From Chara braunii (lineage: Eukaryota > Plantae > Charophyceae): a stretch of 64,000 bases of DNA. Below, piece by piece: positions 5,808 to 41,047 of this stretch (position 1 is the first letter of the stretch; each line of letters begins with the position of its first letter). The DNA is taken from NCBI GenBank assembly GCA_003427395.1, contig BFEA01000046.1:455279-519278 (forward strand), read 5' to 3'. The notes under the pieces were generated by a model. It made no database searches, had not been told where the DNA came from, and worked only from the letters and a program-made list of their open reading frames with translations. The translations under genes were made by a program, and so were the position numbers.

Positions 5808-5844
<37 letters not shown>

Positions 5845-5884
5845 ATGACAATTCCGCGCGCGGGCGACACACACACTTAGCTGT

Positions 5885-5926
<42 letters not shown>

Positions 5927-5927
5927 T
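5808..5927. repeat. (CA)n/(CT)n microsatellites
   Basis: Direct reading. Confidence 0.95.
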
Positions 5928-7475: not shown

Positions 7476-7510
<35 letters not shown>

Positions 7511-7646
7511 TACCCATTATTTTAATCAGGAAAAATATGGTAAAATCGCATCCGCGGCGCGGACGAGGTCGGCCGCGCACGCGGCCGTATATGAGTCCGC
7601 CATCCGAGCTCGACGCTGCGGACGCGTCTACTGGTGTTTCATAGGG

Positions 7647-17600: not shown

Positions 17601-20109
17601 AGATGGATGCTGTCGAGTAAAAGGCAGGATGGGCGAGAAGCATGCGTTACTGGGGAGGACGCCTGTGAGAACGCGCAAAAGGTCTATAGAAGGGTAACTT
17701 GGTGGACTTCAGCGTGTTCCAGAGCTTGCTCACCCCGTATCATCTACCCTGGCCATCACCCCCATTCTGAGCAATGGTACTAGTGACGTGTTGGATACTG
17801 TCAATCAAGTATCGTGTGAGAGTTAAAAGAAGTCAAAGTTCTAAATGAGTGTTGATGGGCACTAGAGACTGGTACTGGGTGCTAACTGTAGATGATTCGC
17901 ACATATGACAAAAACTGTAATCGAATACGATTTATGATTGGGCACTAGAGACTGGTACCAGTGAGTATTTTGTTGGTAACCCGTCACAACCCGCAATGTT
18001 GTCACCCCTAATTACAAAAGGAAAATGTCATTTATAGGAAGCCTTGAATGAGGGACATATCGAATGAAAGTTGAGACGCTCGGGTAAACGGGGTACTCTC
18101 TCTCTTATACTGGCGGATTGTGGTTGACGCCAACTGTTCAAAGCGTCTTCATCTCTATCAGCTCCTATGTACTGTATTGGTGACTTGGACGATAATTTTC
18201 CCCTAATTGGCAGGCGTTGGACTCTTGTAATCAATCTAGCACATCGTATCTCGCATATGCCACGAGTGACAGTTCGGTGGTGATGTGTATTGAGGGTGGT
18301 GATAATACTTGATCATTCTGATCTGTCTTCTACTGATAAGGGTCGTGGAAGCAAGAGACCTTTCTAGGATTTGAGCTGTCAAACCGACTATTCGGATAAG
18401 ATTATGAAAAGTATCTAAAGCTTTCACTTCCTATTTATGTGTGTTTAACCCTCACCTCCGCCTTTTGCTTGTTTGGGCTGCCTACAAAATTATTAATCAG
18501 GGGCCTCGCCCCTTTTGTTATTGTAAAAGTAGTATGAACAACTTGCACTTCCCTTTTCCCATGAACCCTCACTCCTATAGTGTCTGTTGACTGGGTTCCG
18601 AATGACAAGCCATAGGAAACGAGTCAGGGGCCATTTAGTAACAGGGAGAAGAAGGCTGAGACCTTCGCACATTGTTGATGGACAATAAACATTTTGTTTT
18701 ACGAAGAATAGCATATTTATTGGCAAAATTCATGTTAGATGGTGACTAAAGAAAGGAAAGGGGGAAATAGGGATAAAACCTTGTTTACAAGCCCAAAGCC
18801 AAGGTCGATGCGGGAGAGGTAGTCATCTTCCAACCTTTAAAGAATCAATTCATTCGGAGTTTTGTCTCTCTGTTTGATCAAAACGATACCGACAGAAGAA
18901 AACGTGTGCTATGTCTGAAAACATTGTGACCTATGGATTACCCCTTCGGGGTCAAGTAAGATCTTGCATCAGCCTTGGAAGTGTGTGTTTCTAGCGTATG
19001 TGTTCTCAGACGCGCGCAGGTATTATGAGAACACCTCTTCATTTAAGGGTAGAGTTGCAAAACTACCTTTCGCCTTCTCAAGCATTACGGGGAAGGCCCC
19101 TTTGTCGAGGCATATGATCGGTGAGCACAAGGAAATACTTTGTTGAGTTCTCAGTGGGAGAAGAGGGGTGTTCCCCTCAGAACGTGACAGACACTCAGAA
19201 GTAAATCCTTTCTATTTTGAACTGATCCCTTTCTACTTAAGAGTGACACCATGCTCTCAGAGTCGGTTTTCCCTCACTGAGTGTAGGCAAAACCGTGCGT
19301 TGGAATTCGAATTTGGGCATAAGACCGCCCCAGTGATTCGGGCGTTGAACAAGGCATTCATCCTCAAAATTATTGTGTCGGGTATAAGCGGACCGTGGAC
19401 TTGTACCCTAGAGGTTGAGAACGAGTACATCAAACGTTTGAAGTCACCGTTTATGTCTGAGCTCGTTTCCATGTCCAAAGTGGTTGTACTGAGCTGGGAT
19501 GTCAAGCTTAAGGGTTTCCGTACTCAATGCAAGCTAGTGCTCGCAGCCATACTTTTTTTTTGTATTAAATAAAAGATACTCAGACTAGTGTTACTCGACA
19601 TGTGATCAGACTTCGTGCATGAGGTTCATACGTGAGAAAACCCTGATGCTGTATATGAGCAGGAGCGACTCCCAACCCCTTTCGTGAGCGTTGTCGGTGC
19701 GAATACCCGTACAAGGGTATCCGCCCTGTTTTTTTGCAAGCGACAGAAAATAAGTTTGGCTTAAAGTTTTAAGTATACCACGCGAGGCGCAGCTGAGGCT
19801 GTGGTTTACGTGACTAGGTGGCTGGCTAGAATAGAGAGTGTGTGGGCAAGCAGACTAGAGGCACATGTGATCTTAATTTTCGATAACTGTAGGACCGGCG
19901 TGATCACCGGTCAGATTTATTTTTTTCTGATTAAACTAGGATTTCAAAGGTTGTCTTGTGATTGGTGCGCTTGCGTGTAACTTGTGAGTACGTGCGAAGG
20001 ACGACGTCGACGGCGACATGGTTCGGTATAGTCTCGTGGTGGACGTGGAAGGTTGGCGGCCGTGACTTTTGCTGATAGGATGGTCTGAGGAATTGAAACG
20101 TTTTGCCAG

Positions 20110-20360
20110 AACTGCATGCCTCATAGTATCCTTTTATCTAGGTGTCCGCTAATACTAAACCCAGCCTTTGGCCTAACACTATTGATTACGACATTGAACT
20201 TTCATCCGGGGAATTCAGGGAATCGATGCCAGTGGGCGACGACACGGGAATATTGGAGCGGCGAGAGGAAAACCGACGCGTTAAGGGCCCGACGGGGCTG
20301 TCCCCATGGGTTTGTGGGTTACAAAGTTGGGTGTCGGGGCCAAAGGAGGTATTGAGGACC
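20110..20360 (+). other. Condensed, diverged 18S rRNA 5'-domain-like fragments inside LTR (also ~37030-37275)
   Basis: aactgcatgcctcat ~ AACTGCGAATGGCTCAT; gctaatac; caactttc-like; ggggaattcagggaatcgatgcc ~ GGAGAATTAGGGTTCGATTCC; gacacggg; attggag; all in rRNA order. Confidence 0.45.
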
Positions 20361-20949
20361 CCGCGTTTTCCTTCCTCTCGTCGTGCGACTTTTGTTTCGC
20401 AGTAATTGTTCTGTTATTATTATTATTAATATTGTTATCTTTGTTATCTCTTTCAAAGCTGGGCGCGGGCCGTATCGGGATCGATAGTGGTCAACGAGCG
20501 TGTCAAATATGGTGGTCATATTGGTAGAGTTATTCCCATGGCGGGCCTTGAAGTCCCTACCTCCAAAATCTACTACTGCCATCCAAATCGACACCAAAGG
20601 CCGCGCTAAGGGCTTGCAGTGGGCCCGCGGCCCCTGAATCTATGATGTGCATACGAGTTGGGAGTGATTTAGCCGCAAAGGAGAAAGAACCAGATTGGCG
20701 TAGTCCCCCTACAGTCTGTTCCCCGCAGGCTGCTAAGTGGGGGTTGAGCGTAAGCAAGCTCTTTGGGGCCCAAAGAAGGGAAGTTGTGCCTAGGCGGAAT
20801 AGTCGAGGACACAGTGGTGAAGGCCGCAGGCTGCGTACAGTAGGCCAGCCACATGGAATTTTCCCTCGCCCTAGTCTTCAGAGTTCTCAGATTAATTTTT
20901 GCTACTATCGCCAAGGTCTGCACTAAGGTCGCCCCACCTGAGTCCATGC

Positions 20950-21192
20950 TTCAACCAGGGCAACGGAGCCGCACCTTGATCCCGCAATCTACCTCGAGAG
21001 ACGTAAGCGGGCGTATGCCCATTGGGGCCCCGAAAGGCGGGGTGGGACAGAGGGAGTCTAGGGGGAGGCTGCTGCACTGCGGATGCATAGGGGACAACCG
21101 TCGGACTCGGGTATAGGGGCGAAAGACTAATCGAACATTCTAGTAGCCGGTTTTCCCCGGTGTTTTTCCTTCGAAGGAAAAAGCCAGGGCTA
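20950..21192 (+). other. 28S/26S rRNA domain II fragment inside 5' LTR
   Basis: 28-nt exact gggtataggggcgaaagactaatcgaac (21109-21136) followed by tctagtagccggtt; upstream accttgatc, cccgaaag and ggaggct match preceding LSU segments in order. Confidence 0.85.
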
Positions 21193-21206
21193 CTAGTTGG
21201 CGCTAA

Positions 21207-21224
21207 GTCCTTTGGGACATCCGT

Positions 21225-21256
<32 letters not shown>

Positions 21257-21321
21257 GGCCCCTGCACAAGGATGACACACATAAATCGGGAAGAAAATGC
21301 CCGACTGCTTTGTTTTTTTTT
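21207..21321 (+). ncRNA. U6: U6 snRNA-like sequence embedded in 5' LTR
   Basis: gtcctttgggacatccgttaaaattggaacgatacagagaagattagcatggcccctgcacaaggatgacacacataaatcg matches plant U6 (ACAGAGA box, AGC triad, ISL); ends in a T-tract; no USE/TATA seen upstream. Confidence 0.93.
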
Positions 21322-23530
21322 ACTACCATCGTCTTTTCGATTCGATAGAATTTGGGGCAGGGGTATTAGGCGCTGAAGAAAAGCTGCGCTAAAGAGTGCT
21401 TGGCAGCGAGGGGATGAAGGAGATGGCGAGAGTTAAATGAGGCGCAATGAAGAAAAGGGGGTTCGTGCGATTCCTAACAGAGTCGGGCGGAGGAGAAGCT
21501 GATCTCGGGGTTATCAACTACGGCGAGCCCGTCTATGAGGTTTGTTCTGTTAGGAGATCAGTTGAGAGAGAGATAGATGAGAAAGGACTGTCGGGCCATG
21601 GCAGAGAGAAGGTGAATAGGAAAGAGATTTTGTTAGTTCGGCCATCTTTCGACAAGGAAGGGGTCCGAATCGGGGTTGTGAATGAAGGCGAGTCCAAAAC
21701 TGTTGTTAGTTGAAGCGATAGAGTATTAGAATAGGTGGTGGTGGAAAAACGAAGTGCACGGGAGTTTTCGGAAGGGATGGCAGAAATCGAAGGATGAGTA
21801 ACTCGCTCTGTGAACGAACTTTAGTAGAAGAAGAAGAACGATTGGGGTTTTTCCGGCATCACGCATCCAATGGAAAACTCGGATTGCTGAATAGATAAAC
21901 GCATTCTGCAATCAGACTAGTATGGGCCGCACGTAGGAAGAACGACTAGAAGTCATGTATTTTTCCGCGTTCCAGCGGAAGGTTCGTGCTCGTTTTACAA
22001 GTGCAGTAAGTCGGATCGCAGGTCTTGTTTCTTGTCGGCTTGTCGTGCGTCTGGATCGCGACAACCTTCCTCTTTGTCTTCGAGCTTGGTCACCGTTCGG
22101 GCAATGTAGTTCTTCCGGTGACCGAAACTAGGCCGTACTCATGGCAAAGTGCATCCACTCCGCCAAGGGGCCATGAGCCGCGTGAGTGGAAGCGAGCGCA
22201 AAGACGGCGTATGAGGAGAGATAAGGGGGGCGGGGAGAGGGAGTATAGTACTTATGTGCGGAGCATAATCCAGGATTTTAAGCGGAAGATCTGTTTGGTT
22301 TTGCTCATCTGATCGATGAAAAGTAGCGTGAGGCTAACCACTGTGTTGAAGACTTACCTGTTGGATGGCGTGCTGTTCTCCCGACCAACTAAAGCATCGA
22401 TGAGGAAAACAGTTTGCCGACGTGCTTGAGAACGGGCAGGTAGGCTCCACAACCTTGTGAATCGGAGGGCTACAGGAAGCCGCGAGTTGAAGTCTTACCC
22501 ACAGACAGTGTAATGCTCACCTTGCTGGTCAGTGTGGCTGTGCGAGTCTAGCCGCAGGAGTGAAGGAGTCATCTGTTGACTTTCGCATTGTCTATTCTGC
22601 CAAGAGAGGTGGCCGGTGAGAACTGCAAGGCTCACTTGATTGCCAACGCACGACCCCCCCTGCTAAAGGGAAGAGTACAGAGCGAGCTAAAACTTAGTTG
22701 TTGATCAACGTACTGCTCATCTCACTGAGGTAGGAGAGAGTGAGACCAGTTGTAGAGGCTGCCGACTTACCTACTAGGCGAGCATTGCCTGTCCCACTGG
22801 AGCGAAAGGTAAGCCGGGGGAGGAGAAGACTGTGTTTTCCTTTCGTTTGGCCTGCGGCCTGTATTTCGGGTGGTGACCACAGAATTTCAGACCACAAGCC
22901 TTGCAGGAGGAACTCGGCTTGAGGAAGGGAAGTGTTGTTGCGAATTTGGAGGGTCGTCAGGAAGTCGACAGCCGGCAGTTTGACTAAGATTGACCAAGTT
23001 GCTGCCCGATCTTGGCTGCCATTGCGGGGCCCTCAGGCGAAGTTAAGGAACCAAGGCCCTCTCTCGCGAGTCCGAGCGCATCATTCATGTATTTGAGAGT
23101 CTCAACCTATCTCCTTCTGCCTTTCTAACTCTCAGTCTAGTCCTTGGTTACGAGAGGAAGGCGGCAGGCGGGATTGCAACCCGTAGGATCGTAGCAAGAT
23201 TCTGTGGGGAGTCCACCCACCGATTGCGAGAGCTCTGCCGGAACCAAGGCGAGGTTTTGGAGGCAAGGAACCATCAGGTATCCAATTTTCTGCCTATATG
23301 ACTGCACAATACCCATGTTTGCCTATCTCCTTTTAGTTTGACTGATATTTGTATGAGATTGCCCCTTTGACTTTGCTTTCTTTCAGGACCTAATCAGACT
23401 TAATGGTAGGAATGTGTGAGAGTGAAGCATAAGTTTTATTTTTATTTTAATTGAAAGCAGACAAAGGGGGGTGAACTGGAGGAAGGTGGGAGGAAGGCAG
23501 TTTTGCATGCGTTTGACCGGGTCAACCAAG

Positions 23531-24147
23531 GACCGGGCATTGTTTCTAAGCTGAATGGCCCAGGGCTATGTTTATTTGGCTGTTTTCTGAAGGGTCAGGC
23601 ATTGTTTCTAAGCTGAATGGCCTGGACGCTGTGTTTAATTTTTTAGGGTTGCCTGATTTGAAGTGTTTAAGTTCTTGCTTTATTCTGAGGGAGGATTTTG
23701 GTCTAAGGTTGAGCAGTGTTTCTAATCTGAATGGTTTAGCCTGAAAACCACGCACATAAGTATAAACTGAGTATAAAAGAAAGAATTCTACTTATATTTG
23801 CATGTGAACTGGCAGATGGACATTGTTTCCAAGCCGAATGGTCCAGCACTAAGCCATATCGCTAAGAAGAGAAGGGAAATTACAGAGTATAATTGGAAGT
23901 AGTCTAGGCAAGTTGAACATTGTTTCCAAGCCGAATGGTTCAGTCCCCTGCCCATATTTGCATTTCGTTTGAGAACAAAGTCAGAGAGCTATTAAATTTT
24001 GGATATTAAACAGTTCAGGGCGGCTAGACATTGTTTCCAAGCCGAATGGTCTAGTCATATGCCCAAAGAAGAGAAAAGTAGTAGTGCAACCTGTTCGTGT
24101 ATATCTTAAGGCACGTTGGACATTGTTTCGAAGCAGAATGATCTAGC
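23531..24147 (+). repeat. Array of 7 conserved-loop RNA hairpin units in 5' LTR
   Basis: attgtttcYaagcYgaatg loop, each with a distinct complementary stem (tggac/gtcca, ttgaac/gttcag, ggctagac/gtctagtc, aggttgagc/gtttagcct). Confidence 0.85.
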
Positions 24148-24419
24148 ATTGTGCCATATGTAAGTTGGGTATAAAGATTGAATCATCTGAGGGTTTCATG
24201 AACTATCTTATATGAAATGACTTGGGGTTGGTGAAAGAACTTATCTTTGTGGTTTGGCCTGCATGTGACTGAGTGAGATGACTTCCTAGTTTGAGTTTTA
24301 GTTTGATAGGTAGTTGCTTTAACTGCTCGCCACGTGCTAGAGCGATAGGAGTTTATTTCAATTCCTGCATTTTCTACGTTAACTTTTTTTGCTTAGGTCA
24401 ATTCTCACATTTTTTTGGA

Positions 24420-25030
24420 TCAAGCTACTTTCTCTACGGGAAGCGCTACCGAAATTTCTAAGAAAACAAGGAATTAGTCAGACTTCTTTTTTTTTAGGGT
24501 CCACCTTTTCTGACATTTTGGCTTAGTAAAAATATGAAAAACCTCGTTTTCTAAAGGGAGTGCTGCCCAAATTTTTGCTAACTAGGGAGTTAGACGAAAT
24601 TAGACCTTGAGAAGTCAAAGTCATTTTAGATTCTGAACTTAGCTTTGTATAAATCTTGGAATAACACTTTCTCTACGGGAAGCGCTGTCGAGATTTCTAC
24701 AAATCTAAGAAGTGAATTAAATTTTGTCTTAGTTGAACTCGGATCTTGTTTATGAGTTCATATCTGACTTAGTATAAATATGGGAAGTCTACCTTTCTAA
24801 AGGAAGTGATGCCCAAATTTTTACTAATTCAGGGAGTTTGACAAATTTTGACTTTGCAGATCTAGAGATTGGTTTTGTTTTCATTTTTGAGGTATTATAA
24901 ATTATGCGAAGGCACTCTTCCTATGGGAAGCGCGGCCGAAATTTTCTTAGTTTATAGGAGTTATATTATATTTTGATAGGTGGCAGGTCTGACAATCCAC
25001 TCTGCATAGAGGAGATTCTACCAAAGGTCT
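24420..25030 (+). repeat. ~120-bp tandem repeats with alternating A/B subtypes (also ~41360-42040, and inverted at ~4000-4700)
   Basis: ctttctctacgggaagcgctgccgaaatt alternates with tttctaaagggagtgctgcccaaattttt. Confidence 0.8.
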
Positions 25031-26816
25031 ACCTTTTCATTACACACTGACTTAGTGGTAGCCTTAGATTTAGTTAAGCAGAAAAATTTTTGAGTGAGAT
25101 CGGGATATTGAGATTATTCTCCGTGGTCTACCTTTTCATTAGGCACTGATTTAGGGGTAAATTTAGATTTAGTTAAGTAGAAGGATTTTTTAGTGAGATC
25201 GGGATATTGAGATTATTCTCCGTGGACTTATAGGTTTACCTTGGGACATTGACCTGTCTTGTGTTACAGGTCCTTTGGATCGCTTGATTCGAGATCAGGA
25301 TTAGGTTCAGCAGGTTCCTTGAGGATCACCTTCTGTTATCACTGATAACTGGTCGGTTGTCGATTCGTCGGTCTACGATTCAACTCCAATTCATTCTCAA
25401 TACTTAACCTAAAAAGGTTTTAGTCCTGATGATTTTTGTTGTTTCATTAAGGTTTTACCCGGACTTTTATTGAATGGCTTTTTAACAAAGTTAATTATGG
25501 TTGGTTGGACAAGGGTTGGGGCTTGCATGGCTGAAGCGAGGGGTATGAGTATAGAGGTTGGTTGAAGTTGACTCTATGTAGTGCTTGGATTTTTTTGGGT
25601 GACTTTTTGATGTGATTGCAGGTATGTACTGTGGTTCTGATTTTGGATTTGACTGTCTCCGATCACACATATACATATGGCTGTGAGGAGTCCCACTTTG
25701 ATTGTGAAAAGTGATCGTCACATACTTATTCCTCTTTACATATATATATATGTATGTATCTATATTGTATCTATATTGGATATTCGCGTGGCCTGAGGGG
25801 CCTACACTTAAGGGTTGAATTCGGGTTGAGATTGAGAAAGGGAAGAAAACCCCTCTATGTGGTGTATTATTCTTAAAGATTTCTTAGTCGGACGTTGGTC
25901 CTGGGCCTGGATTCGAGGTCCTTGTCCAGGACATCCTAGGCCCTAGACTCTGCATGGAAGGGATCTCCTCCTGCGCAGAGCCTATTTGCCCTGCCTACGG
26001 AGACACTCAGCCTAAAGGCCGAAGGTGTCATGGCGGCCGCACCGCTATTCCTTCAGCCGTGCAATATCGTGAGGGGGTAGGCCCTCACGATACTTCGAGA
26101 GTGACACTTGAGTGTCATAAGTGGTGCTCGGATCCACGAAGGACCGCTTGATTATGGGCACTACATAGTACGTCATTATTGCGACTGCTTGCGTATTCAT
26201 GCATTGCTAGTCGATATGATTTAGCCTTGCGTCCGCACGGTTTTGTACTAAAGTCTCGCGCGCGATAGCTATCCGATTTTCGCATCGGAAAGTTATGGGA
26301 TGGCTGCTAAGGGACTAGGAGTGTTGTCGCGTTGTATGTTTTGTGTCGTTTCGTGTATATGTATGTGTGTATGTTTTTATTATTATATTCTTTAGAGTGG
26401 TGTGCGCATCGCGTGTGGGATGCGTCCTAGTTGACCGGCGACGAGTCGCGCTAGGGATCTCGGCCCCCCCAGATGTCGATTCGCGTGCGGGTCCGATAGA
26501 GGAGTAAAGTCGCGCATACCCCTTATGGTATAACGTATGAGAAACCCCCTCGGCTGGTCCACCTCTGCGATTGCAACTGATCAGCTTTCGTACTGTGGAT
26601 TGGTAGCTCGTCGGGGATACGCCCACCGAAGGGAGGTGACAACTCCTTTAAGGTGGAGGTAAGTCGTGCCTGGCGTAGGCCCATCCTATCGTAGGGGCTC
26701 GCGAGAGGTATGGCTGGCGCACCCGCCAGGGACCTTCCTTGCCTTTTCCAACACAAAGGCTCCAGAGGTCGTGAACAGTCCCAGAAAGATAGCACATTGA
26801 GCGTCCTCTGGACTGA

Positions 26817-27596
26817 AATATATGCGATCAGATCGGGGAGTATATTGACAGGAAGGTCCCAGGCGGGTTGAGAGCACAAGCTCTCAGGAGGATAGCGGGA
26901 CGGCAAGCACCGCTTGCCACTTTCAGATTGTGGCAGGAGAGAGATGACCCGCCGATAAGAGTGGAAAAGATGGAAGGCGATGAGGAGGTGACTCAAAGAC
27001 TACAGGCGGAGACTATAAAGGAAGAACCTATAGCCGTCGAGTCGGACGATGAAGGTGAGGGTGAAAAGGTGGAGCCAGCGTCTGTCCTTTTGGGAAAGAT
27101 GGAAGATTTGTGTGACAAGGTGGGGCGGTACCGACAAAAAATAGCAGATATATGTAAAGAAGTGGAGGAATGGAGAGTCGGCATCCCCAAGGTCTTCCTT
27201 TATGATTCGGGTCCTGAATCTATGCCAGGGAAGCAAGGGTACCCTGGAGTTACCACGGTGACGGTGAGTTCAGGGCCAAGGTCTGGGATGACCCACAGAC
27301 CCCCTACTCCATTGGCACAAGCTGCATTGGCCGCACGGACTAGGGGACAAGGGCAGGGACGGAGCCAGGACCAGCCTCAGAAAGAGCCAGAGCCAGAACG
27401 CAGAAAGGAGCCTGTGGAAGTAGAGGATGACGATGATGAAGATGAGGAGGATGAAAGGCTTCGACAAGAGGAAGACAGGAGGGCCGAACAAAGGGCAAGG
27501 AAAAGGGGATCCCAGGAAGAAGCCGAGCCGGTTTTGCGCGATATAACGCCAAAGAAGAAGTATGCAATTCGGCTTGAAGAAGGGTTAGGCGTATAG
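26817..27596 (+). pseudogene. gag: C-terminal remnant of gag and gag-pol linker; most of gag is deleted
   Basis: In frame upstream of ORF 26868: NICDQIGEYIDRKVPGGLRAQ, similar to the post-zinc-knuckle motif of the downstream gag-like ORF; acidic/coiled-coil linker follows. Confidence 0.55.
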
Positions 27597-27599
27597 AGA

Positions 27600-30500
27600 G
27601 TGATTGACAAACTGATTGAGGGCCATAATGACCTTATGACCCTAAAGGAAATCCTGACATCTGCCCCAAGGCTCCGTAATGAGCTGAAGGGCAGGCTTTC
27701 GAGGCGTTTGGTACCAAGTGTCCATCTCAGTGTGATCCTGCCAAAGGAGGGAGAGTGGGCGGAGCCGGGGACAAAAATGGACTGGAAATGTGTGGCCTAT
27801 GGAATGGTGGATTTGGTGGTGAAGGGAATGAAGTGCGCAGCCATGGTGGACACAGGTGCCGAAATGAACATCATCAAGGAGGCTGACGCACGAAGGTTTG
27901 GGCTGGAGATTGACCGCTCAGATTGGGGCATTTTGCACGGGGTAAACTGCAAGGTTGTATTCTGCGGGGCGACCTCGAACGTGCTTATAGAGATTGGGTG
28001 GGTAAAGGTCGGGACGTGCTTTTTCGTTATGCCGGATGTGGACCATGCCATCCTCCTGGGGAGGTCGTTCCTATGCAGGACGAAGACCCTGATGTTCAAC
28101 AAACATGATGGGACACTGATCCTGATTCTATGTGATCCAGCGTGTGTGAATTACGAGATAATCACCTGCTGAAACACTGGACCACAAAGCATAAGGAATA
28201 GGCTCAACCTTGGTTCCTTCACTATTGAGGAGTCAGAGGACGAGCGTCGGAGACTCCTGGCGGAGCCTGAGGGAGAGGTAAGGGAGGAAGCGTTTTCACT
28301 CAGCGTATCTGATGTGAACAAGGCCATGGATATAGTGGCCACGCACGAAATGGCGGATCCAGACGCCATTCAGGCGTTGAGGGAACAAATCCTGGAATGT
28401 CCCCAAGCAGGGGAACCGACTTCCAAGGGGAAGAAAGGACTCTACTATGACGCAGGCGCAGACGGTTAGTCGGCCTTTTTTAGGGAACGACTCAAGCAGG
28501 GTTCCCAAAGGCGGTACAAAACGATAGATAAAAAGTGCCACCCAGTTCCCGTTTTCATTACTGAAGATGAGGAGGTACATTATGAGCGGGAACGAGGTTT
28601 GATACGAGAGATGAAGGAGGGAGCCTCAGTAGGGTCATGCCGTATTAACGAGGGGAACAAAGGGAAGTTGATTGTAGGAGAGCCTGACTTCCTACTGCCC
28701 CAGGAAAGAGTGCTAATGATAGAATGAATGAAGAGAACGCATCGCGCCTATGCGTTTAGAGATCAGCAGCGTGACAGGTTGGATGTGGACAAGATTCCCA
28801 TGATCCGCATCCATACCGTGCCGCATGAGCCATGGAACTTGAGAGGGGCGCGATATCCTAATCCTGACGAAGAGAAGAAGGTGGTAGATTACCTCGATGG
28901 CAAGATACGCACACACGTTGCCGGTTATTCGAGAGGACCATACGCGTCCCCTTGGTTTTGTTTTATCAAACCTAATGGGACATTGAGATGGGTGCAAGAT
29001 TTGCAAAGGCTGAATGCGGTGTGCGAGATGCAGGAGGCTTGCCGAATGCGGATGCGCTGTCGGAATCATGTGCTGGGAGGCCAATAATCTCACTTATTGA
29101 CCTCGATTCCGGATACGACCAGTTTTCGGTCTATCCGCAAGACAGACCAGTAACAGCGATGCATACGCCTCGAGGGCTTATCCATATTAACGTGGCTCCA
29201 AAAGGGTGGACGAATGCTGTGGCGATGGTTCAGAGGCATATGATTCGAGCCATGCAAACAACTAGTCCGCATATTACGCAGCCATATATCGACGACTTGG
29301 CAGTAAAGGGACCAAGAAGGAGACAGGACGATGAAGTATTGCCAGGAGTAAGGTGTTTTGTCTGAAAGCATATTCAGGACCTTAATAAAGTCCTGAATTT
29401 GCTTGAAAAACATAACCTTACGGCAAGTGGAGCCAAATCTAGACATTGCACGAGGGAAGCTACCATCTTGGGATCCATCTGTAGTGAGAGTGGCCGACGG
29501 CCAGATGCTAAGAAGACGGACAAGATTATTGAATGACCAGTACCATTCCATTCGATAACAGATGTCAGGAGCTTCCTCGGCACATGTGGATTACAAAAAT
29601 TTTGTTGTCAAGACAGAGCATTTGAGGAAGTTGGTACGTCAGAATCAGGAATGGATCTGGGGTGAAGATTAGGAGAATGCGGTGGCAAGAATGAAGGAGG
29701 AGTTTCGGGAAGGAGGACTGGTATTAGGGGCGTCGGACTGTGACGCTACGGAGGTAAGGCCATTCATTGTTGAGACGGATGCTGGACCAACTGCTTTTGG
29801 CGGAGTTTTGATCCAGGCAGATATTGAAGGAAAGGAGAGACCATTGCGCTTTGAGAGCCGAACTCTGCGTACGACAGAGAGAAATTACTCTCAGTTCAAG
29901 AGGGAGACTCTCGCTGTCCTTCACTGCCTACGGATTTTTCGAAATTACATCTTTGGCAGAAGATTCATATTGAGGGTGGATCCGACGGCTTTAGCCTTTT
30001 CCCTAAGGAACTACGTTCCATCAAATCCAACGGTTGCCAAATGGCTAACGTACATCTGGATGTTCAACTTTGAGTTGGAGCGGATCCCTAGGAGTAAGAA
30101 TAGAGCAGACGGGCTAAGTCGCATCAACTGGGATAAGCAGGAAGGGGGGGCGATAGAGGATATGCCCCCAGTTGATGGCTTCTTGGATCAGGAGGAGGAC
30201 ATCCTTCATATTAATGAGTGGTCCCCACGAGTGCCTAGTTGCGTTGGTCATCCCATCTGGCATGCGTCAAAGGGGTATGAGCAAAAGGTAGAATTGGTGC
30301 TCAAGCCTTTTGAAGAGGATCCCTGGGGTGGCAAGGATGTCCAATGGATGATGAAGTTGGCGCTCGTTGGCAAGCATAGTCTGGTGGAAGAGATAAGGAC
30401 GATAGAGGAAGGTCCAGACCAGGTAAAGAGGCACGAGGAGCTGATGGGAGGAATGTACCTCCTCGTCAATACACTTCTGCAGGAAACCTCTGATCCGATA

Positions 30501-31850
30501 GGCTCATTAAATCTGACTGAAGGAGAAGATGTTGTGCCAAAAAGCCAGGATGACGAGTTTGAAGAAGGAGAGATCAAAGAGGCCTTCCGTGCAAAGGAGT
30601 ATGATGGAATTTACCTGGAACTAGGGCTTCTGCTATCATGCGAGATAAGAACTAGGGATGCAAGTGAAATAGCCCAGAGGATGAAGCACCTCTATCTAGT
30701 GAGAGATGGTCATTTCTTTGTAAAGAGGCAAGTGGGGAACCCAAGAAGGCTCATGTGTGGAAGAAATCGCCAGATAGACGTGATAGTTGCGCTTCACGAT
30801 GGCATTACAGGAGGGCATCGAGAGGTCAATGCCACATATATCAAGATAAGCGAGCTGTATTACTGGGATGGAATGATGGAAATGGTGGTCAAGTATTGTC
30901 GATCCTGCGTACCCTGTCAGGAGAGGTCTCCCTTAAGGTCTGAAGAACTTTTGCATCCGAGATTGGAGAAGGAAGTAGGGGCCGTGGTACATCTGTACTT
31001 GCTATTCATGCCGATCGGGGATCATGGCTACAACTACATCTTCGATGCACGAGATAACCTTACTGGCTTTGTGGATGGTCGGACCAGTCGTAGAAAGACC
31101 GATCTGGTCCCCGTAAGTTGCATCGAAGAATACTACCTACGTTATGCTTTCGTCCGAGAGTTCGTGATGGACAGGGGATCAGAGTTTACTTGCCAGGAGG
31201 TGCAGGATTATTGGAAGGGTATGGTGTGGTGGCCAACTATACTACGGTTGCCCACCCACAAGCAAACGCTCCGGTTGAAAGAGGGCATAGCACCATTACG
31301 AACCTTCTGGCTAAGTGGACTGAAGGTTCGCCTAATCAGTGGCCAAGGTACCTGAGAGCGACGTTCTTCGTCGAGAATGTCATGGTGAAGAGGACCACTA
31401 AGCATGCGCCAACTATGCTATGGTATGGAAGGCATGCTACGTTCCCAATTCAGAGCTTCCTGAAAACCTGGAGGCGCCAGGACCTAGAGACCAACTTGTC
31501 TTTTGAAGAGTTGCTTGACATTCGGGCCCGACAGGTGGGGGCAATTGAGGAAAGATTCAAGAGGCATCGAGTCAAGTGGAAAGGAGTCGTATGGATGATA
31601 AGGTTCGTTGGGACCAAGCGACGCGCATGCGGAAGATGCCTTTGAGGGTGGGGGACGTCGTGTTGTAGTACGACTCATCGCTGAAAAAGCAGTGGTCCAG
31701 AAAGCTTGATAAAAAATGGTTGGGGCCCTATCGGATCATGCGATGTGGAGAGTTTAGCGCTTACCAGATTGAAGAGTTGGATGGGACAGAGTGGAAGGAT
31801 TGGGTGTCAGGGACTCGACTCAAGAAGTTCGTAGCCAGAGAAGAGGTGAG
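27600..31850 (+). pseudogene. pol: Gypsy pol: protease, RT, RNase H, integrase (stops and frameshifts)
   Basis: AMVDTGAEMN (PR); PYASPWF, IDLDSGYDQF, YIDD (RT); ETDAG...NYSQFKRETLAV (RH); HDG..GGH...CxxC, VMDRGSEF, VERGH (IN); WLGPYRI. Confidence 0.95.
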
Positions 31851-32057
31851 ATAAGGGTCCTAAAAACCCCATCGTAGTATGTAGTTAATAGGAAGAGTGC
31901 GAAGGTTGTTAGATACGATAAAAGAGTTAGGGATGGAGTTTGGCTGTGTATGTATGGTTTGACCTGAGCCTGCTATGCCCCACCTGTATGCTTACTCCTT
32001 TGTGTGCCCATCGTCTCATTTCGCCTGTTGTGCAGATCTGACTTTGCGAAGACAGCC

Positions 32058-34591
32058 ATGCCAAGAGGAGGGAGGGAGATGCGGCCATCGAGGAGACCAT
32101 CGGGGGCATTAGGGGGACATGAGCGGCATGGATCTTACCAGAGGGAGCATACACCAATACGCGACAATGGGGAGATAGAGCTATTTCTGGACAATTTCAG
32201 GAGTTATGCGAGTCGCAGGAGATGGACTGTAACTCGCATGATTGAAAGGTTGAGGGGAGCGGGACACTTGTCAGAGCCCATTGCGCGGATCTGTGAGGAG
32301 GCGAGGACTTGGCAGGAAGTAGAGTTGGCGATGCAAAGACTGAGGCCTTCACCGGAAGGGGTAGACGGGGAGCCGATCCGTCTCCAGATTGGGAATGTGG
32401 AGGAGTTTATCCCGACTTTTGAGCGATTTTTGCACGAGCAAGGTATCCTGAGGGACCAATGGATGCAAACGTTTCCACTATGGACGAGGAGAGCAGAGAG
32501 ACCATTGGCCCGAGAGATCCGGGATAGGGCGTGAGACTAGGAAGGTTGTAGGGCGCACTTGAGGGAGGCCTTTCGGAGGCCAGAGCCAGTACTACCACAA
32601 CCTAGGGTTGAGAGGCGGCAGAAAAGTAAGCGGCAAAGGGAACGTGAGCCTAGGGAAGCCGCCCCTAGTCGAGGAGGACGGAAGGCACTGACACGGCGAG
32701 ACAAGGAGCCCGCCCAACCTGCAAAGGAGCCAGGCATGTATCCGGATTGTGGACTGGGACCAGTGGCTTTTCAGCCTTTCACTGAAGGGAGGTTACGGGA
32801 GCCTCCACAACAGGTGTCAGAGGAGGTTGTGCCGACAGAGGATTCTCTACAGAGCTTGGAGGCGCACTTGGACGCCTCGCAGTGGAAGGTGCCCCAGACC
32901 AGTGGAGGTCAGGAAGTCGGGCCCTGCACCCGGAGTGAGCAGCAAGCAGGGGAGGTGATCGAGATAGGAGAGGATACTCCTCCACAACAGTTAGCCTCTG
33001 CTCCAAAAATGGAGGCCGAGCCGATGGATGTTCAGAAAGGGGGAGGGGAGCCTCAGCGGGGAGAGACACCACCACCAACCCCAGATACGATTCGATCGTC
33101 AGAGGTGAGAGTAGAGACAGAGCTGGAGGAGACAGATTGGAGGAGGGAGGTAGTCTCTATAGTGGACAAATATTTGGCAGCGCATGCTGAGGAGCACCTT
33201 GATCTAGGTGGGGCTCCAGTGGAGGAGCCATTGCAAGAACCCCATCCCCTATAAATGGAAGTACAACCTGAGGCCCCATTGGATGACATCCGCCCTGTAG
33301 GAGGGAGAGCACATCCGAGGGAAACGGTTGAGGAGAAGAGGGTCAGGACAGGCAAACGTTTGGAGGAGATATGGCAGGAGAGGCAAAGGTTGGAGGCAGT
33401 AGGGGCACTTTCGGACCAACCGCCCAGCGTACCGGCCAAAGCCCCTGGAATTTCAAACATGTGGAGAGAGTTTTAGGAGCAGAGGGCTGAAGGACTCACT
33501 TCGCCGACGAGAGCTGGTTTCGGGATAGCCAGGCAGGCGGAGGAGAGTCTGGATCGCAGAATCCGGTTTCTAGCCAGGACGAACTTCAATATATATTTGA
33601 TGTTGGAGGGTGATCTGGCAGGAAAGAAGATAAAGGAAGAAAGTCATGGGGTACGCCTTGAAGCATTGGAGGCAGAGATCCAAGAACTCAGGACATTAGT
33701 AACTGGTCAGGCCGCCATCATTCAGGACCTGTTGGAGGAAAGCAAGAAGAGGCGGGCACCCATGAGGGCAGTGGACCAGACGAAAGGGGCTCGATACGAC
33801 GTTCGGAACAGGTGGCTCAAGGATCTGGGCAGCCATCTGAGGCATGACCTTCCCAGGGGCCGTCCCTTGGAAAGGTCATCCTGGAACCAGAAGAGGCTAA
33901 GGCAAAAAGGGAAGTGGAGAAGGAAGCCTTCGTGTTCAAGGCCCCGACGGAGTTTGCAACCCTACCAGTGGAGTTTTTGGGAGTCATGCCGACATCCTCG
34001 CCAATGCCAGGCAAAGAGGGACCACATGGAGCCGCTAGTGAGCTAGCACAGGGATCAATGGAGGGGTCCATGGGTGTGCTTCTAGAGGCGCTTGACACTA
34101 TGCAGGAGGAAGCAAGCACACCTATGCCCGAGTTGGGCACTGAGATTGTAGGCGAGGACCTGCCGGCGGTGGTATCAGGAGAGACGCGGGAGAGCATGCC
34201 GCAGAGATTGGATACGCCTGAGTACATTCCAGAGGTGGGTGATCTGAGGAGTAGACTGGGATCTTGGGCTACCGGATCTGGTTCTCGGGATAAGGCCTCT
34301 AATTCAAAGCAGCAGGAGGTTGCCAGTGCTGTGGTTGGATCCCCATCATCGTCGCCACGACGGCCAAGAAAGAAGAAGTTCAAGAGGAAGGTTGATCAAC
34401 TCTGCTTCTTTTGCAAGGATGGCGTACATTGGGCCTTCGAATGTCCTAAGTTCCTCGAGGACAAGGCGGAAGGGAAGGTCTCAGAGAGTGCTGGAAAGAT
34501 GTATGATAGACAGGGTCGAGTGGTAGAGAGATCTGCAGATGGGGGTAGAGCTCAGTTTTATAGACAAAACGAGGAGAAGATGAGTGAGTAG
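32058..34591 (+). pseudogene. Second gag-like ORF downstream of integrase
   Basis: Gag-capsid-like segments (IELFLDNFRSYA; VEEFIPTFERF...LREAF), acidic/Pro linker, coiled coil, zinc knuckle CFFCKDGVHWAFEC; in-frame stops and a frameshift. Confidence 0.75.
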
Positions 34592-37500
34592 GGACTGGTC
34601 TACCTATATGACTGTCATATCACTCTGAGGATTTGAATCTAGAATTAGGATGTACTCTTTAGACTTAGGGGATTGTGCTGCTTTTTGTTAATAGTTTTCA
34701 GATTTGGAGTTTTTGCATCTACGATGGGGTTGTTCTTAGTGTTATAAGGATCAAGACGCAGTAAATAAGGCATGTATATATCTAGGTAGCCTGTTCCCTG
34801 ATTCTTGAGAGACAGACTCAGTTTATGTTTGAGGGTTGCATCAGTATGAGATTGATTTTGTTTGAGTTGAGTGAATCATGAATTTGGATTACTACTAGTA
34901 TTTCTGGATGAGATATCTCATCCCTAAGTGTATATCGAGGAAGGATTGTTGAGACCATCTCTTATATATGACGATCACTCTCGCTCTCACATGTGTGGTT
35001 TTGTCTTGATGTATGGTGGTTTTGTGTGAGAGGTGCATGAGAAACATCTCGTACTTTTATTGTGTATTTCGCGAATATGAATGGATGTCAACTGTCTACT
35101 CTTCGGTATACTCGTGCGATTTGCCCACGGGCGGGTGATACGGCCGGGTATAAGAAGAGGGAGTGCAATTTGTTTCGTGAAAGAGTTTGGGAATCCAAAA
35201 GGATTTAAGAGTCTTTGAAACTTGAACGCTTTACCATGCCGAATGTTTATTATTGAGTTGTGATGAAGACCCATAAGTTGGTCCCTCAGTTTGAGTTGTT
35301 TTATGGTGGAGACGCCTTTGAGTAGGAAGACAGTCTTTTATTTATTTGGAGACTCATCTTCAGAGAGGGAAGATGTTTAAAAAAAAAAGGGCAGTGTGAA
35401 AGTTCATCCTAGAGAGAGGGATGACTGGGAGACCTATGAAGTGGGGCCTCCTTCTTATGAAAGGTGGTTAATAGATTTAAATGGCATGGAAAGCAGATTC
35501 TGAATAATAAAGACAGACAAGAAGAACCAAGTTTTTGTTTGGTCATTGGAGGAATTTTTCGATGTCGCAAAATGGTTCATTTTTTTGGGAGATGTCATCG
35601 AGATATGTGACTTTATGACTCTGATCAAGTTGGGAGGTCACGGCCTTGTGAATCTGGCGGTGATTCTGTTTTGTGATTGTGGAGAGGTTGCCGTGTTTCT
35701 TTGTGTTGTCCCACAGAGGACTGGTAAATACCTTTTATGTGTGATAGACCTTTGCGTAGTCCCGCAATAGGCCTATATTGTTGCGACACACCGCCAACCA
35801 TTTGTGTTAATCTTGGGCATTTAAGAGAGACCCAACTAGGGGTATAACTGGCATCACTAGGACGTAACTCCTAGTGTTGGTTGTTGATCGGCGTAACCTG
35901 ACCAGCGGGCCTGCGTCTTACCAAGGGAGTAAAGACTTAAAGGGTGTGGAAGCCTATGAGGGTTTTACTTCTGCGGAACGATGTGGGATAAGGGCTGAGT
36001 CAAATGAGTCTTTTGAGTCCTGATTGAATGCTTATCAGGAGAAAGCCTATCATGGCGCAACCTGCGAGGGCACTACCGGTAAAATAACAACGCGGTGGGC
36101 CGTAGATCAGGCTTGATCACCCAGACTATGTTGGGCCAAGATGGAGACCTGACCTTCCTGTACTAGATTGCAGGAAGAGATAAGATTTATGTATATATAT
36201 TTTGTTTGGCTGTGAGAATTGTTGGGAGGGAGGCGAGAATGCCTTCGAAGGTCTCGGTTAGGGCCCGCGTTCCTAGTTATGGCCCTGCAAGCAGGGTAGA
36301 GACTTAGGACACCTACCGAGAAGCCGACGTTTGTCTAGAACAAAGGGGAGAGGACAGTTGAGGAATCCATTAAGACTTGTGCTGTAGTATAGTGATGAGT
36401 ATCCCACGGTCCTAGTGTCATGACAATGGAAAACCAGGTTGGAATCCTGACAGCATAAAGTTGTGTTTTGACACGGATTGATGGACGCCTCAAACCGAAG
36501 TCTGTCGACTATTCGGATTGGTTTCTTTCTCGTCAGCATTTTGGATTATGAATGAGCTGATAGCTTTCTGATTTGGCGATGCGACGGGGACGTCGCTTAA
36601 TATGGTCCGGTAAGTTGTCCGTGCGAATAACCTTACACGGGTATCCGCCCTGGTTTTTTGCAAGCGACAGAAAATAAGTTTGGTTTAAAGTTTTAGTATA
36701 TCGCGTGAGGCGCAGCTGAGGCTGTGCTTTACGTGACTAGGTGGCTGGCTAGAATAGAGAGTGTGTGGGCGCGCAGTTTAGAGGCCCGAGTGATCTTTAT
36801 TTTTGATAACTGTAGGACCGGCGTGATCGCTGGTCATATTTAATTTTTTCTGATTAAACTAGGACTTCAAAGGTTGTCTTGCGATTGGTGCGCTTGCTTG
36901 TGGCTTGTGAGTACGTGCGAAGGACGACATCGACGGCGACATGGTTCGGTATAGTCGCGCGGTGGACGCGGAAGGTTGGTGGCCGTGAGTTCTGATAGGC
37001 CGGTCTGAGGAATTGAAACGTTTCGGTAGAACTGCATGTCGCATAGTATCCTTTAATCTAGGTGTCCGCTAATACTAGACCCAACCTTGGGCCTAACACT
37101 ATTGATTACGACGTCGAACTTTCATCCGGGGAATTCAGGGAATCGAGGCCAGCGGGCGACGACACGGGAATATTGGAGCGGCGAGAGGAAAACCGATGGG
37201 TTAAGGGCCCGACGAGGCTATCCCCGTGGGTTTGTGGGTTACAAAGTTGGGTGTCGGGGCCAAAGGCGGTATTAATGAGCCCCGCGTTTTCCTTCCTATT
37301 GTCGTGCGACTTTTGTTTCGCAGTAATTGTTCTGTTATTATTATTATTATTATTGCTATCCTTGTTATCTCTTTCAAAGCTGGGCGAGGGCGGTATCGGG
37401 ATCGATAATGGTCAATGAGCGTGTCAAATACCGTGGTCAGCCTGGTAGAGTCGTTCCCATGGCGGGCCTTGAAGTCCCTACCTCCAAAATTTGCTACTGT

Positions 37501-37869
37501 CATCGAAATCGGCACCAAAGGCAGCGCGGCGGGCTTGCAGTGGGCCCTCGCCCCCTGAATCCGTAATGTGCATATGAGTTGGGAGTGATTTAGCCACAAA
37601 GGAGAAAGAACCAGATTGGCGTAGTCCCCCTACATTATGTTCCCCGCAGGCTGCTAAGTGGGGGTGGAGCGTAAGCAAGCTCTTTGGGGCCCAACAGAAG
37701 GGGAGTTGTGCCTGGGCGGAATAGTCCAGGACACAGTGGCGAAGGCCTCAGGCTGCGTACAGCAGGCCAGCCACATGGAATTTTCCCTCGCCCCAGTCTC
37801 CAGAGTTCTCAGATTACTTTTTGCTGCTATCGCCAAGGTCTGCACTAAGGTCGCCCCACCTGAGCCCAT

Positions 37870-38113
37870 GCTTCAACCACGGCAACGGAGCCGCACCTTG
37901 ATCCCGCAATCTGCCTCGGGAGATGTAAGCAGGTGTATGCCCGTTGGGGCCCCGAAAGGCGGGGCGGGACAGAGGGAGTCTAGGGGGAGGTTGCTGCACT
38001 GCGGATGCATAGGGGACAGTCGTCGGACTCGGGTATAGGGGTGAAAGACTAATCGAACAGTCTAGTAGCCGGTTTTCCTCGGTGCTTTTTCTTCGAAGGA
38101 AAAAACCAGGGCT
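37870..38113 (+). other. 28S/26S rRNA domain II fragment inside 3' LTR
   Basis: cgtcggactcgggtataggggtgaaagactaatcgaacagtctagtagccggtt. Confidence 0.85.
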
Positions 38114-38128
38114 ACGAGTTGGCGCTAA

Positions 38129-38243
38129 GTTCTTTAGGACATCCGTTAAGATTGGAACGATACAGAGAAGATTTGCATGGCCCCTGCGCAAGGATGACAC
38201 GCATAAATCGGGAAGAAAATGGTTGACTGCTTTGTTTTTTTTT
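38129..38243 (+). ncRNA. U6: U6 snRNA-like sequence in 3' LTR (AGC triad mutated to UGC)
   Basis: ggacatccgttaagattggaacgatacagagaagatttgcatggcccctgcgcaaggatgacacgcataaatcg...T-tract. Confidence 0.92.
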
Positions 38244-40432: not shown

Positions 40433-41047
40433 AGGACTGGGCATTGTTTCTAAGCTCCAGGGCTACGTTTATTTGGCTGTTTTCTGAAGGGTCAGACATT
40501 TTTTGTAAGCTGAATGGCCTGGTCGCTGTGTTGAATTTTTGAGGGTTGCCTGTTTTGAAGTGTTTAAGTTCTTGTTTTATTCTGAGGGAGGATTTTGGTC
40601 TAAGGTTGAGCAGTGTTTCTAATCTGAATGGTTTAGCCTGAAAACCACGCACATAAGTATAAACTGAGTATAAAAGAAAGAATTCTACTTATATTTGCAT
40701 GTGAACTGGCAGATGGACATTGTTTCCAAGCCGAATGGTCCAGCACTAAGCCATATCGCTAAGAAGAGAAGGGAAATTACAGAGTATAATTGGAAGTAGT
40801 CTAGGCAAGTTGAACATTGTTTCCAAGCCGAATGGTTCAGTCCCCTGCCCAAATTTGCATTTCTTTTGAGAACAAAGTCAGAGAGCTATTAAATTTTGGA
40901 TATTAAACAGTTTAGGGCGGCTAGACATTGTTTCCAAGCCGAATGGTCTAGTCATATGCCCAAAGAAGAGAAAAGTAGTAGTGCAACCTGTTCGTGTATA
41001 TCTTAGGGCACGTTGGACATTGTTTCGAAGCAGAATGATCTAGCATT
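40433..41047 (+). repeat. Hairpin array in 3' LTR
   Basis: Same units as 23531-24147; first unit partly deleted. Confidence 0.85.

Follow-up and report, generated by a model that had tools for sequence, protein, structure and literature searches.

Introduction

Among the described systems closest to the locus reported here are Cassandra, Ajax and Helenus (TRIMp3), which the cited parts of their descriptions present as non-autonomous elements of 300-1300 bp with a 5S or tRNA part that forms an internal Pol III promoter (PMC10886601, bioRxiv 2023.07.14.548913). Host RNA also enters LTR elements through LTR-mediated retroposition and retroviral patch recombination, where the cargo in the cited sections is mostly mRNA, with 7SL in one recombinant, and where U6 is named as a known packaged RNA (PMC5131818, PMC4997597). 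LINEs, according to excerpts of two reports, generate chimeras of full-length U6 or 28S fragments of 50-480 nt joined to other sequence, with inversions that arise by twin priming (PMC4476161, PMC13174262); one of these, crediting Giles et al. 2004, associates a few old snRNA copies with LTR elements (PMC4476161). SINE28, in the cited portion of its description, is a free-standing mammalian SINE made of the 3’ end of 28S with a tail (PMC4994717). The table of rDNA-derived sequences in transposons given in a 2024 review has no entry other than 5S for LTR elements, and enters 28S for a mammalian SINE alone (PMC10946416).

Here we describe an LTR element within a 64,000-nt stretch of the Chara braunii genome (hereafter the window) that carries captured 28S rRNA and U6 sequence inside its long repeat. 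Like the TRIMp3 elements, it has small-RNA-derived sequence in a terminal repeat, copied along with the element. Unlike those short, non-coding elements, as their cited descriptions have them, it spans about 24 kb with pol and has 7-kb repeats, and its cargo is 28S plus U6, partly antisense, in which no promoter motif was found. With patch recombination it shares host RNA pieces, sometimes from several donors, that are patched into an LTR element and re-amplified, whereas the alternating-orientation 28S of the Chara terminal repeat does not appear in the cited parts of those descriptions. LINE chimeras likewise join U6 and 28S fragments and contain inverted pieces, but in the sections cited the small RNA lies 5’ of the LINE with target-site duplications, while in Chara U6 lies 3’ of 28S in an LTR element and such a duplication was not found. 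SINE28 is also a mobile sequence derived from 28S rRNA; the Chara pieces, in contrast to its 3’ end as excerpted, are internal to 28S (positions 794-980 and 1431-1529 of 3164) and lie inside a gypsy element. Finally, Dada-type elements are reported to split the U6 genes that they target, while the Chara U6 is unbroken (model positions 1-105) and sits inside a repeat. Our literature search turned up no published LTR element that carries both 28S and U6.

Results

The element is a broken Ty3/gypsy element. Its internal region (26796..34630, plus strand) contains the end of gag, protease, an RT region, RNase H, integrase and an extra coding region, most of the gag coding sequence being absent. 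The order protease, RT, RNase H, integrase is that of Ty3/gypsy: Pfam places protease in the frame at 27597, and RNase H followed by an integrase zinc finger in the frame at 29673, with the RT region between protease and RNase H assigned by tblastn coverage from relatives bearing RVT_1. Coding homology extends over about 8 kb of an element that spans about 24 kb including pol. All 120 matches listed for the coding region are Chara braunii proteins, and none of these matches the long repeats. Viral contigs yielded no relatives of the element, which has no bearing on copy number. The DNA is present in four of the 24 sequencing runs listed, all from one sample; no RNA run is listed as containing it, a blank that has no bearing on expression. 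There is also an inverted relative, with an 18S piece 600 nt upstream of it.

Two direct repeats of about 7 kb each flank the coding region on the plus strand, at about 19690..26641 (copy 1) and about 36614..43802 (copy 2, cut off at its 3’ end). They are roughly 90% identical, with 592 substitutions over 6888 aligned positions (8.6%), and share a near-identical tract of about 600 nt. Copy 1, either an LTR or a 3’ non-coding region plus LTR, starts with TG and ends with CA; these ends are seen in copy 1 only, as the 3’ end of copy 2 is missing. A weak candidate primer-binding site, whose complement ends in CCA and for which no tRNA match was made, lies at 26715..26732 (plus strand), 74 nt past the end of copy 1. 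The label LTR for the whole repeat is plausible, with 19692 and 22933 as candidate 5’ starts. A start at 22933 is as plausible as one at 19692: in both repeats a purine tract, a candidate PPT, is followed by TG (22921..22932, plus strand). Homology with the inverted relative begins at about 22915, and 19692-22900 does not align to it. No purine tract lies directly before 36616; candidates occur inside the repeat and upstream of it instead. The placement of the cassette in an LTR, as the earlier note had it, thus stands insofar as the cassette is inside a long repeat that is plausibly an LTR. Beyond U6, Rfam returned one chance-level match only in 21330-26800.

The cassette holds a near-complete U6 at 21207..21321 (plus strand). 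This U6 carries a 10-nt insertion close to the 3’ end and terminates in a T8 run (21314-21321), without poly(A). Rfam aligns 21207-21317 to model positions 1-105 of 105 with 86.6 bits, and the counterpart in copy 2 (38129..38239, plus strand) to the same positions with 80.4 bits, the E-value reaching 1e-20, so that the proposed nearly full U6 is borne out. It was also said to follow an LSU piece closely: it does adjoin a 28S piece, beginning 70 nt past an exact 28-nt LSU match and about 11 nt past the end of a weaker hairpin extension (~21195). Searches with consensus sequences, from which a host-specific promoter may differ, found neither a B-box-like motif in 20100-23900 nor a USE-like motif on the plus strand upstream of U6 in the repeat. 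Neither the LSU-then-U6 pattern in metagenomes nor the translated cassette frame among 1.84 billion proteins gave a match; these results have no bearing on copy number.

In 19690-21500, at E-values up to 10, U6 was the sole relevant Rfam family. Since this search missed even the strong LSU piece, we built our own profiles from 105 rDNA loci (11 SSU, 33 5.8S and 45 LSU sequences). These reveal four supported 28S pieces and a weak fifth, alternating in orientation, all from two places in 28S only (profile positions 794-980 and 1431-1529 of 3164), each in one fixed orientation. The strongest, sense piece A2 (21099..21195), matches positions 918-980 over 21099-21161 (50.5 bits, E 6e-17, 0/200 shuffles as good) and continues as a lengthened hairpin of weaker likeness to about 21195. 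It includes the exact 28-nt match at 21109-21136, which occurs at 104 loci in the scanned part of the metagenome collection; the four of these checked by Rfam are all eukaryotic rDNA, which upholds the exact LSU match read there from the sequence. Upstream, antisense piece B2 (20850..20940, positions 1438-1529) scores 27.0 bits (E 7e-10) and is 79% identical over 76 nt to its best locus, and sense piece C (20726..20824, positions 794-889) keeps about 70% of invariant columns, no shuffle scoring as well (0/200, and 0/60 against the whole LSU). Antisense piece B1 (about 20547..20604, positions about 1446-1500) is eroded, but 0/200 shuffles score as well in each copy and 0/60 against the whole LSU in copy 2. 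The degenerate sense piece A1 (20322..20345, 21/24 nt, E 0.48) falls in the same 28S region as A2; against that region alone 0/200 shuffles score as well, yet 37/60 do against the whole LSU. A1 is therefore not established as a 28S piece, and is possibly an older duplicate of A2. B1, B2, C and A1 had been missed in the earlier sequence-only reading.

The patchwork recurs in copy 2 at 37242..38095, with sense pieces at 37242-37265, 37644-37722 and 38019-38095 and antisense pieces at 37468-37525 and 37772-37869. Captured rRNA and U6 are accordingly present in both repeats and were copied with the element, as had been proposed. The (TTA)n spacer of the earlier note lies at 20414..20438. When both repeats, as well as the 3’ non-coding region, were scanned in tiles, sense-A and antisense-B signals rose above background maxima inside the cassette only. 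C resembles the stretch upstream of A2 (1/1000 shuffles as good). Direct similarity is not significant for A1 and A2 (116 and 111 of 1000 shuffles as good) or for B1 and B2 (142 and 139 of 1000).

Several further candidates were set aside. An upstream extension of A2 (21000-21098) is borderline locally (2/250 background stretches and 1/200 shuffles as good in copy 1, 13/250 and 12/200 in copy 2) and keeps only 21/77 invariant columns globally; it was not counted. An extension upstream of A1 is equalled by 63/250 background stretches, and a third antisense 28S piece after U6 by 164/200 and 70/200 shuffles. A plastid or bacterial origin was rejected, as a bacterial rRNA profile (30 of 48 usable operons, 120 having been fetched) matches the A2 core only, at about 3 bits.

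The remaining rRNA-like stretches of the earlier note do not rise above background. The 18S-like pieces at 20110-20360 are equalled by 36/81 background stretches and 36/100 shuffles in copy 1 and by 54/81 and 60/100 in copy 2, whose best alignment falls in another part of 18S. A genuine 18S piece from elsewhere in the window reached 143 in this test, against 43-46. For the 5.8S-like stretch (~20460-20560) the counts are 113/121 background stretches and 81/100 shuffles (copy 1) and 46/121 and 35/100 (copy 2), and for the LSU 5’-like stretch (20671-20715) 72/121 and 54/100, and 80/121 and 51/100. The SSU and 5.8S profile HMMs match neither copy of the cassette, and a further 18S-like stretch at 36500-36616 was discarded (46/100 shuffles as good). 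With 18S and 5.8S at background, the cassette reduces to LSU plus U6.

Scored against columns of the rDNA profiles, where residues specific to the host’s own 28S or U6 may count as erosion, the four upstream blocks show a change common to both repeats at 34 of 157 near-invariant columns (A1 3/20, B1 4/24, C 15/60, B2 12/53), and A2 does so at 7/61; B1, C, B2 and A2 have lost 18-32% of invariant columns. Private changes at such columns are mostly 0-3 per copy. As most departures are common to both repeats, the element was still replicating as its pieces eroded. Within A2, both copies keep 31/35 invariant columns in 21099-21138 and 19/35 in 21139-21195, common changes numbering 3/35 in this 40-nt LSU core versus 13/35 just downstream. 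In the U6 core, none of 50 strongly conserved positions (counted by eye from the Rfam alignment) is changed in both repeats, which differs from the four upstream 28S blocks (Fisher p 4e-5) and thus indicates a different history, either younger or conserved. Copy 2 has one private U6 change, at a position that we take to be a catalytic core site.

Conservation of the blocks does not clearly exceed that of the sequence around them. They do differ slightly less between repeats (27/446 versus 565/6442, p 0.054; p 0.014 without the near-identical tract), but 91 of 587 slid block sets diverge as little, and with two copies compared the differences would be neutral, and silent on selection, if these are the LTRs of one insertion. 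Folding of 20300-21200 is not unusual (z 0.87), and single pieces fold no better than shuffles (z -0.46 to -0.78). G-U-compatible changes show no excess in the antisense pieces (8/16, compared with 9/22 same-direction changes in sense blocks A1, C and A2). In copy 1 the lengthened A2 hairpin forms, with matched extensions on both arms.

Discussion

What the sequence shows, namely which pieces are there, how they are oriented, that both repeats hold them and that they have eroded to different degrees, agrees with the earlier proposal of a cassette built in more than one step. The account we favour, to which we give about an even chance, is serial capture followed by internal duplication and passive carriage of decaying passengers; the capture routes, the order of events and the lack of function are what we infer. 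A single two-piece inverted capture from a 28S gene (about 790-1000 sense, 1430-1530 antisense) would have come first, with a templated insertion at the DNA level as its most likely route. The captured unit would then have been duplicated inside the non-coding 3’/U3 region of the element, its copies eroding over many replication rounds, before a later template switch of reverse transcriptase onto co-packaged RNA brought in U6 and either brought in or renewed the adjoining 40-nt 28S core. Two 28S places, each in one fixed orientation, are more easily reconciled with one capture and a duplication than with five separate captures, and because the region is a transcribed, repeated part of the element, every new copy would inherit the cassette without need of function. 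Template switching onto co-packaged RNA had been invoked for the whole cassette; it can account for U6 and the sense pieces, yet of the four supported 28S pieces two run antisense to the element RNA and so need another route. Against serial capture stand the lack of significant direct similarity between the supposed duplicates and the lower divergence of the blocks, and near-pristine U6 and LSU cores beside eroded neighbours would also be expected under selection.

It is unlikely, in our view, that the cassette is instead a selected RNA module, in which an intact U6 core and 28S core, perhaps with antisense arms that pair with 28S, are kept in the genomic RNA so as to attract snRNP or ribosomal factors, help with trafficking or packaging, or blunt silencing. 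The U6 core without common changes, the contrast between the LSU core and the sequence just downstream, the recurrence of the same two 28S regions, the matched arms of the lengthened hairpin and the slightly lower divergence would all suit such a module. However, the column losses in B1, C, B2 and A2, the absence of a folding signal and of a wobble bias in the antisense pieces, and the slid-block control argue against it, and quasi-palindrome repair can also yield perfected hairpins. The RNA mimicry proposed from the sequence gains no positive support, given the common erosion, folding equal to shuffles and conservation near background, though mimicry by the almost unchanged U6 core and 40-nt LSU core may occur.

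Similarly doubtful is a chimeric retrocopy of 28S and U6 made by a LINE, through twin priming, template jumps and minus-strand insertion, that the LTR element then partially duplicated. Read on the minus strand, an inverted upstream piece is followed by a sense downstream piece, twice, and the series stops short of a (TAA)n tract, an arrangement typical of twin priming; 28S/U6 LINE chimeras are documented in both orientations in the cited parts of two reports (PMC13174262, PMC4476161). Yet no target-site duplication is reproduced in both copies: the closest one, 10 nt long with a single mismatch in copy 1, is not among the matches in copy 2, although old duplications could have decayed. Furthermore, no LINE sequence was noticed in the cassette, about 110 nt separate the tract from the nearest piece, and the unequal erosion would require several events.

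A rather improbable extension is that an autonomous Chara gypsy family keeps an intact U6 catalytic core, the 28S core and the antisense 28S arms in its genomic RNA as a host-RNA decoy, whether through selection or because copy-choice repeatedly refreshes them from packaged RNA. Related subfamilies would carry other rRNA cargo, such as the 18S piece upstream of the inverted relative. The earlier reading, in which 18S, 5.8S and 28S similarities form a condensed and collinear rDNA operon in miniature, joined to U6, is largely refuted and very improbable: the best 18S alignment of 20110-20315 in copy 1 is roughly collinear with 18S positions 250-448, and the region does contain other degenerate rRNA pieces, but the 18S, 5.8S and LSU 5’ scores do not exceed background, the best alignment of copy 2 is to another place, and repeats and inversions, not rRNA order, mark the supported pieces. 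That an assembly chimera or chance similarity produced the cassette is scarcely credible: the window has an N gap and one 600-nt repeat tract is almost identical, but the cassette occurs twice at 7.8% divergence with common derived changes, and E-values go down to 1e-20 (U6) and 6e-17 (A2).

A coding gypsy element with 28S in both orientations plus U6 extends the list in the review. As a passenger, the cassette would be a fossil record of what such elements capture, and would give rise to pseudo-hits for U6 and rRNA in the Chara genome, possibly also to antisense rRNA transcripts. The decoy reading, if true, would mean that an LTR element uses spliceosomal and ribosomal RNA in a way that does not depend on a promoter. 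Should the pristine cores hold family-wide, they would make it possible to test directly whether host RNAs that are packaged refresh the genome of a retrotransposon or serve it.

Results

A broken Ty3/gypsy retrotransposon lies between two long direct repeats (copy 1, 19690-26637; copy 2, 36614-43802), which self-comparison of the window shows to be ~90% identical (592 substitutions over 6888 aligned positions), and both repeats carry a cassette of 28S (LSU) rRNA pieces and U6 snRNA. The U6 claimed in the earlier note matches the entire Rfam model in both copies (86.6 and 80.4 bits). Rfam detected no LSU piece at E values up to 10. LSU profiles were built from eukaryotic rDNA found by the 28-nt motif (104 loci, four of which were run through Rfam and all confirmed as rDNA), with 200 dinucleotide shuffles per copy as null. 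These profiles gave three matches in copy 1 (50.3, 27.0 and -1.9 bits) and four in copy 2 (45.0, 19.5, 2.9 and -0.2 bits), each reached by 0/200 shuffles; the 50.3-bit match is the previously noted LSU segment with the 28-nt motif, which is thereby borne out.

Along copy 1, the cassette begins with A1 (20322-20345, sense), a weak piece equalled by 37/60 shuffles against the whole LSU, despite which its best whole-LSU match is the A2 site. After a (TTA)n tract follow B1 (~20547-20604, antisense; 0/60 shuffles against the whole LSU, in copy 2), C (20726-20824, sense, profile 794-889; 0/60, in copy 1), B2 (20850-20940, antisense, profile 1438-1529) and A2 (21099-21195, sense, profile 918-980 plus a hairpin), and ~11 nt later sense U6 and T8; the shuffle tests of A1, B1 and C covered both LSU strands. 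Every piece derives from one of two 28S regions ~450 nt apart, A and B, each with one fixed orientation. A scan in tiles across the two repeats and the 3' non-coding region put sense-A and antisense-B scores above their background maxima (41.5 and 43.5, respectively; 276 tiles) in the cassette alone. Elsewhere, the B control in the opposite orientation scores up to 51, so that B1 of copy 1 (50.5) is modest taken by itself, and B1 rests on copy 2 (59.5). The A2 core scores ~3 bits with a bacterial rRNA profile versus 50 with the eukaryotic one, and the source is therefore nuclear 28S. Non-host references reveal conserved-core pieces only, and the spacers between pieces could be variable rDNA.

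The miniature 18S-5.8S-28S operon that had been read into this cassette is absent: the supposed 18S-like, 5.8S-like and LSU-5' stretches score as background (mid-null in both copies in direct tests), and SSU and 5.8S profiles found zero matches in either copy. A true 18S fragment elsewhere in the window (9536-9625, minus strand; 88% over 84-90 nt, 66/75 invariant columns), the positive control, scored three times higher. It lies in G/T-skewed surroundings ~600 nt upstream of an inverted relative of the repeat (2677-8950), in that relative's sense orientation, and may stem from an rRNA capture that a related subfamily made separately, with putative membership of the element. A type III hammerhead-like match (6820-6875, plus strand; 32.3 bits, E 0.005, short of the gathering score of 48.5) adjoins a 105-nt tandem repeat and folds no better than shuffles.

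Where a column shows at least 90% invariance in the reference loci (up to 40 for each block), departures are mostly common to both repeats (A1 3/20, B1 4/24, C 15/60, B2 12/53, A2 7/61), with 0-3 private ones per copy, except six in A2 of copy 2, a count inflated by an alignment edge. It follows from this sharing that the pieces were carried and eroded in the lineage while it was replicating, ahead of the split between the two repeats, and that a single insertion into just one dead copy is ruled out. By an eye count, 50 strongly conserved positions of the U6 core hold 0 shared changes, and 1 and 2 private ones (p 4e-5 for shared changes versus A1, B1, C and B2 pooled); in the first 40 nt of A2, 31/35 invariant columns are intact in both copies, and 19/35 in the next 57 nt. 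The U6 and LSU cores, nearly unchanged beside the eroded blocks, are therefore younger, refreshed or conserved. Internal duplication has mixed evidence: the sequence just upstream of A2 is similar to C (1/1000 shuffles), and similarity of A1 to A2 and B1 to B2 is not significant (111-142/1000).

We consider it improbable that the cassette is a selected RNA module. Its blocks differ between repeats at 27/446 positions versus 565/6442 elsewhere (p 0.054; p 0.014 with a near-identical tract dropped), a test that is low-powered should the two repeats prove to be the LTRs of a single insertion, and 91/587 slid versions of the block set equal or beat the observed low divergence. Neither the cassette nor its pieces fold better than shuffles, and the antisense pieces show no surplus of changes retaining G-U pairing with 28S (8/16; baseline 9/22 same-direction changes in sense blocks). 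Scans with consensus motifs, which may not be the host's, turned up neither a USE-like nor a B-box-like sequence placed to drive U6. The sole exact match to the plant snRNA upstream element (35979-35989, minus strand) is opposite to U6 and probably due to chance; allowing up to two mismatches, the search gave 21 matches versus 23.7 expected.

Between the repeats, the plus strand holds protease, RNase H and integrase zinc-finger matches in gypsy order. By tblastn with 120 Chara proteins, coding homology spans 26796-34630 with stops and frame changes, and gag is mostly absent; beyond integrase comes an additional coding region (32019-34630, plus strand), which is common to 20-30 of the 120 proteins per 500-nt bin and lacks a Pfam match, its last frame having a weak Atlas match (0.79). 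The RNase H-integrase frame has 185 relatives, and the 120 listed are all Chara braunii gene models (closest among them, 81% identity), so that C. braunii is very likely the host and the family is multi-copy; the family copies compared here are the two repeats inside the window. These differ by ~9% in general and at 8 positions in the 600-nt tract 23692-24291/40590-41190, which contains an array of ~100-bp repeats and for which recent gene conversion and assembly collapse are candidate readings. Copy 2 only has a 157-bp tandem duplication (43092-43405). A minus-strand 5' splice-site-like motif, seen by eye at ~22355 and 22770 in both repeats and at 14460 and 46655 in other repeats, may mark a spliced antisense transcript. 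A tRNA-Leu gene lies at 61931-62016 (minus strand).

Where the LTR begins is about evenly balanced between 19692 and 22933. Copy 1 reads TG...CA at 19692-26641; copy 2 is truncated, with no purine tract immediately before 36616. The inverted relative (70-76% identical) matches the repeat only from ~22915, where a 12-nt purine tract and then TG occur in each of the two repeats, a combination frequent enough in this sequence to leave the balance as it is. If the LTR starts at 22933, the cassette would lie in a long 3' non-coding region, doubled by two tandem elements.

Discussion

The earlier observation is partly confirmed and its interpretation, capture of rRNA and U6, partly supported: the cargo is carried in both repeats, and template switching leaves its antisense pieces unexplained. 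Minus-strand template switching, established retroviral biology (PMC5131818, PMC4997597), yields sense inserts; it fits C, A2 and U6 and does not produce antisense ones. An inverted two-fragment insertion from a single locus is a known DNA-repair product, as PMC11724301 describes for yeast with rDNA donors excluded. We favour, at an even chance, a course in which a single inverted capture from rDNA would have been followed by internal duplication of the captured unit, prolonged erosion of the pieces and a late copy-choice event bringing U6 and the LSU core. Twin priming by a LINE leads to the same inverted two-piece geometry (PMC4476161, PMC13174262). A LINE origin seems unlikely, and the cassette lacks the hallmarks of LINE-made insertions.

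In how it works, the cassette resembles the other ncRNA cargo known from LTR elements, and the element falls outside TRIMp3, SINE28 and Dada. Giles et al. (2004) reportedly described snRNA copies adjoining LTR elements. In the literature searched, we found no published LTR element with such 28S and U6 cargo, although the family could be described in Repbase or in the paper on the C. braunii genome, both outside our scope, and no literature joining Chara, U6 snRNA and a retrotransposon. The LTR-element listing in the consulted portion of a review (PMC10946416) includes no 28S or U6 cargo, and neither 'snRNA' nor '28S' occurs in the main text of PMC10886601. What is unusual is that the cargo is inherited with the repeat and that its 28S patchwork alternates in orientation; under either LTR start, the cassette would be part of the element's RNA.
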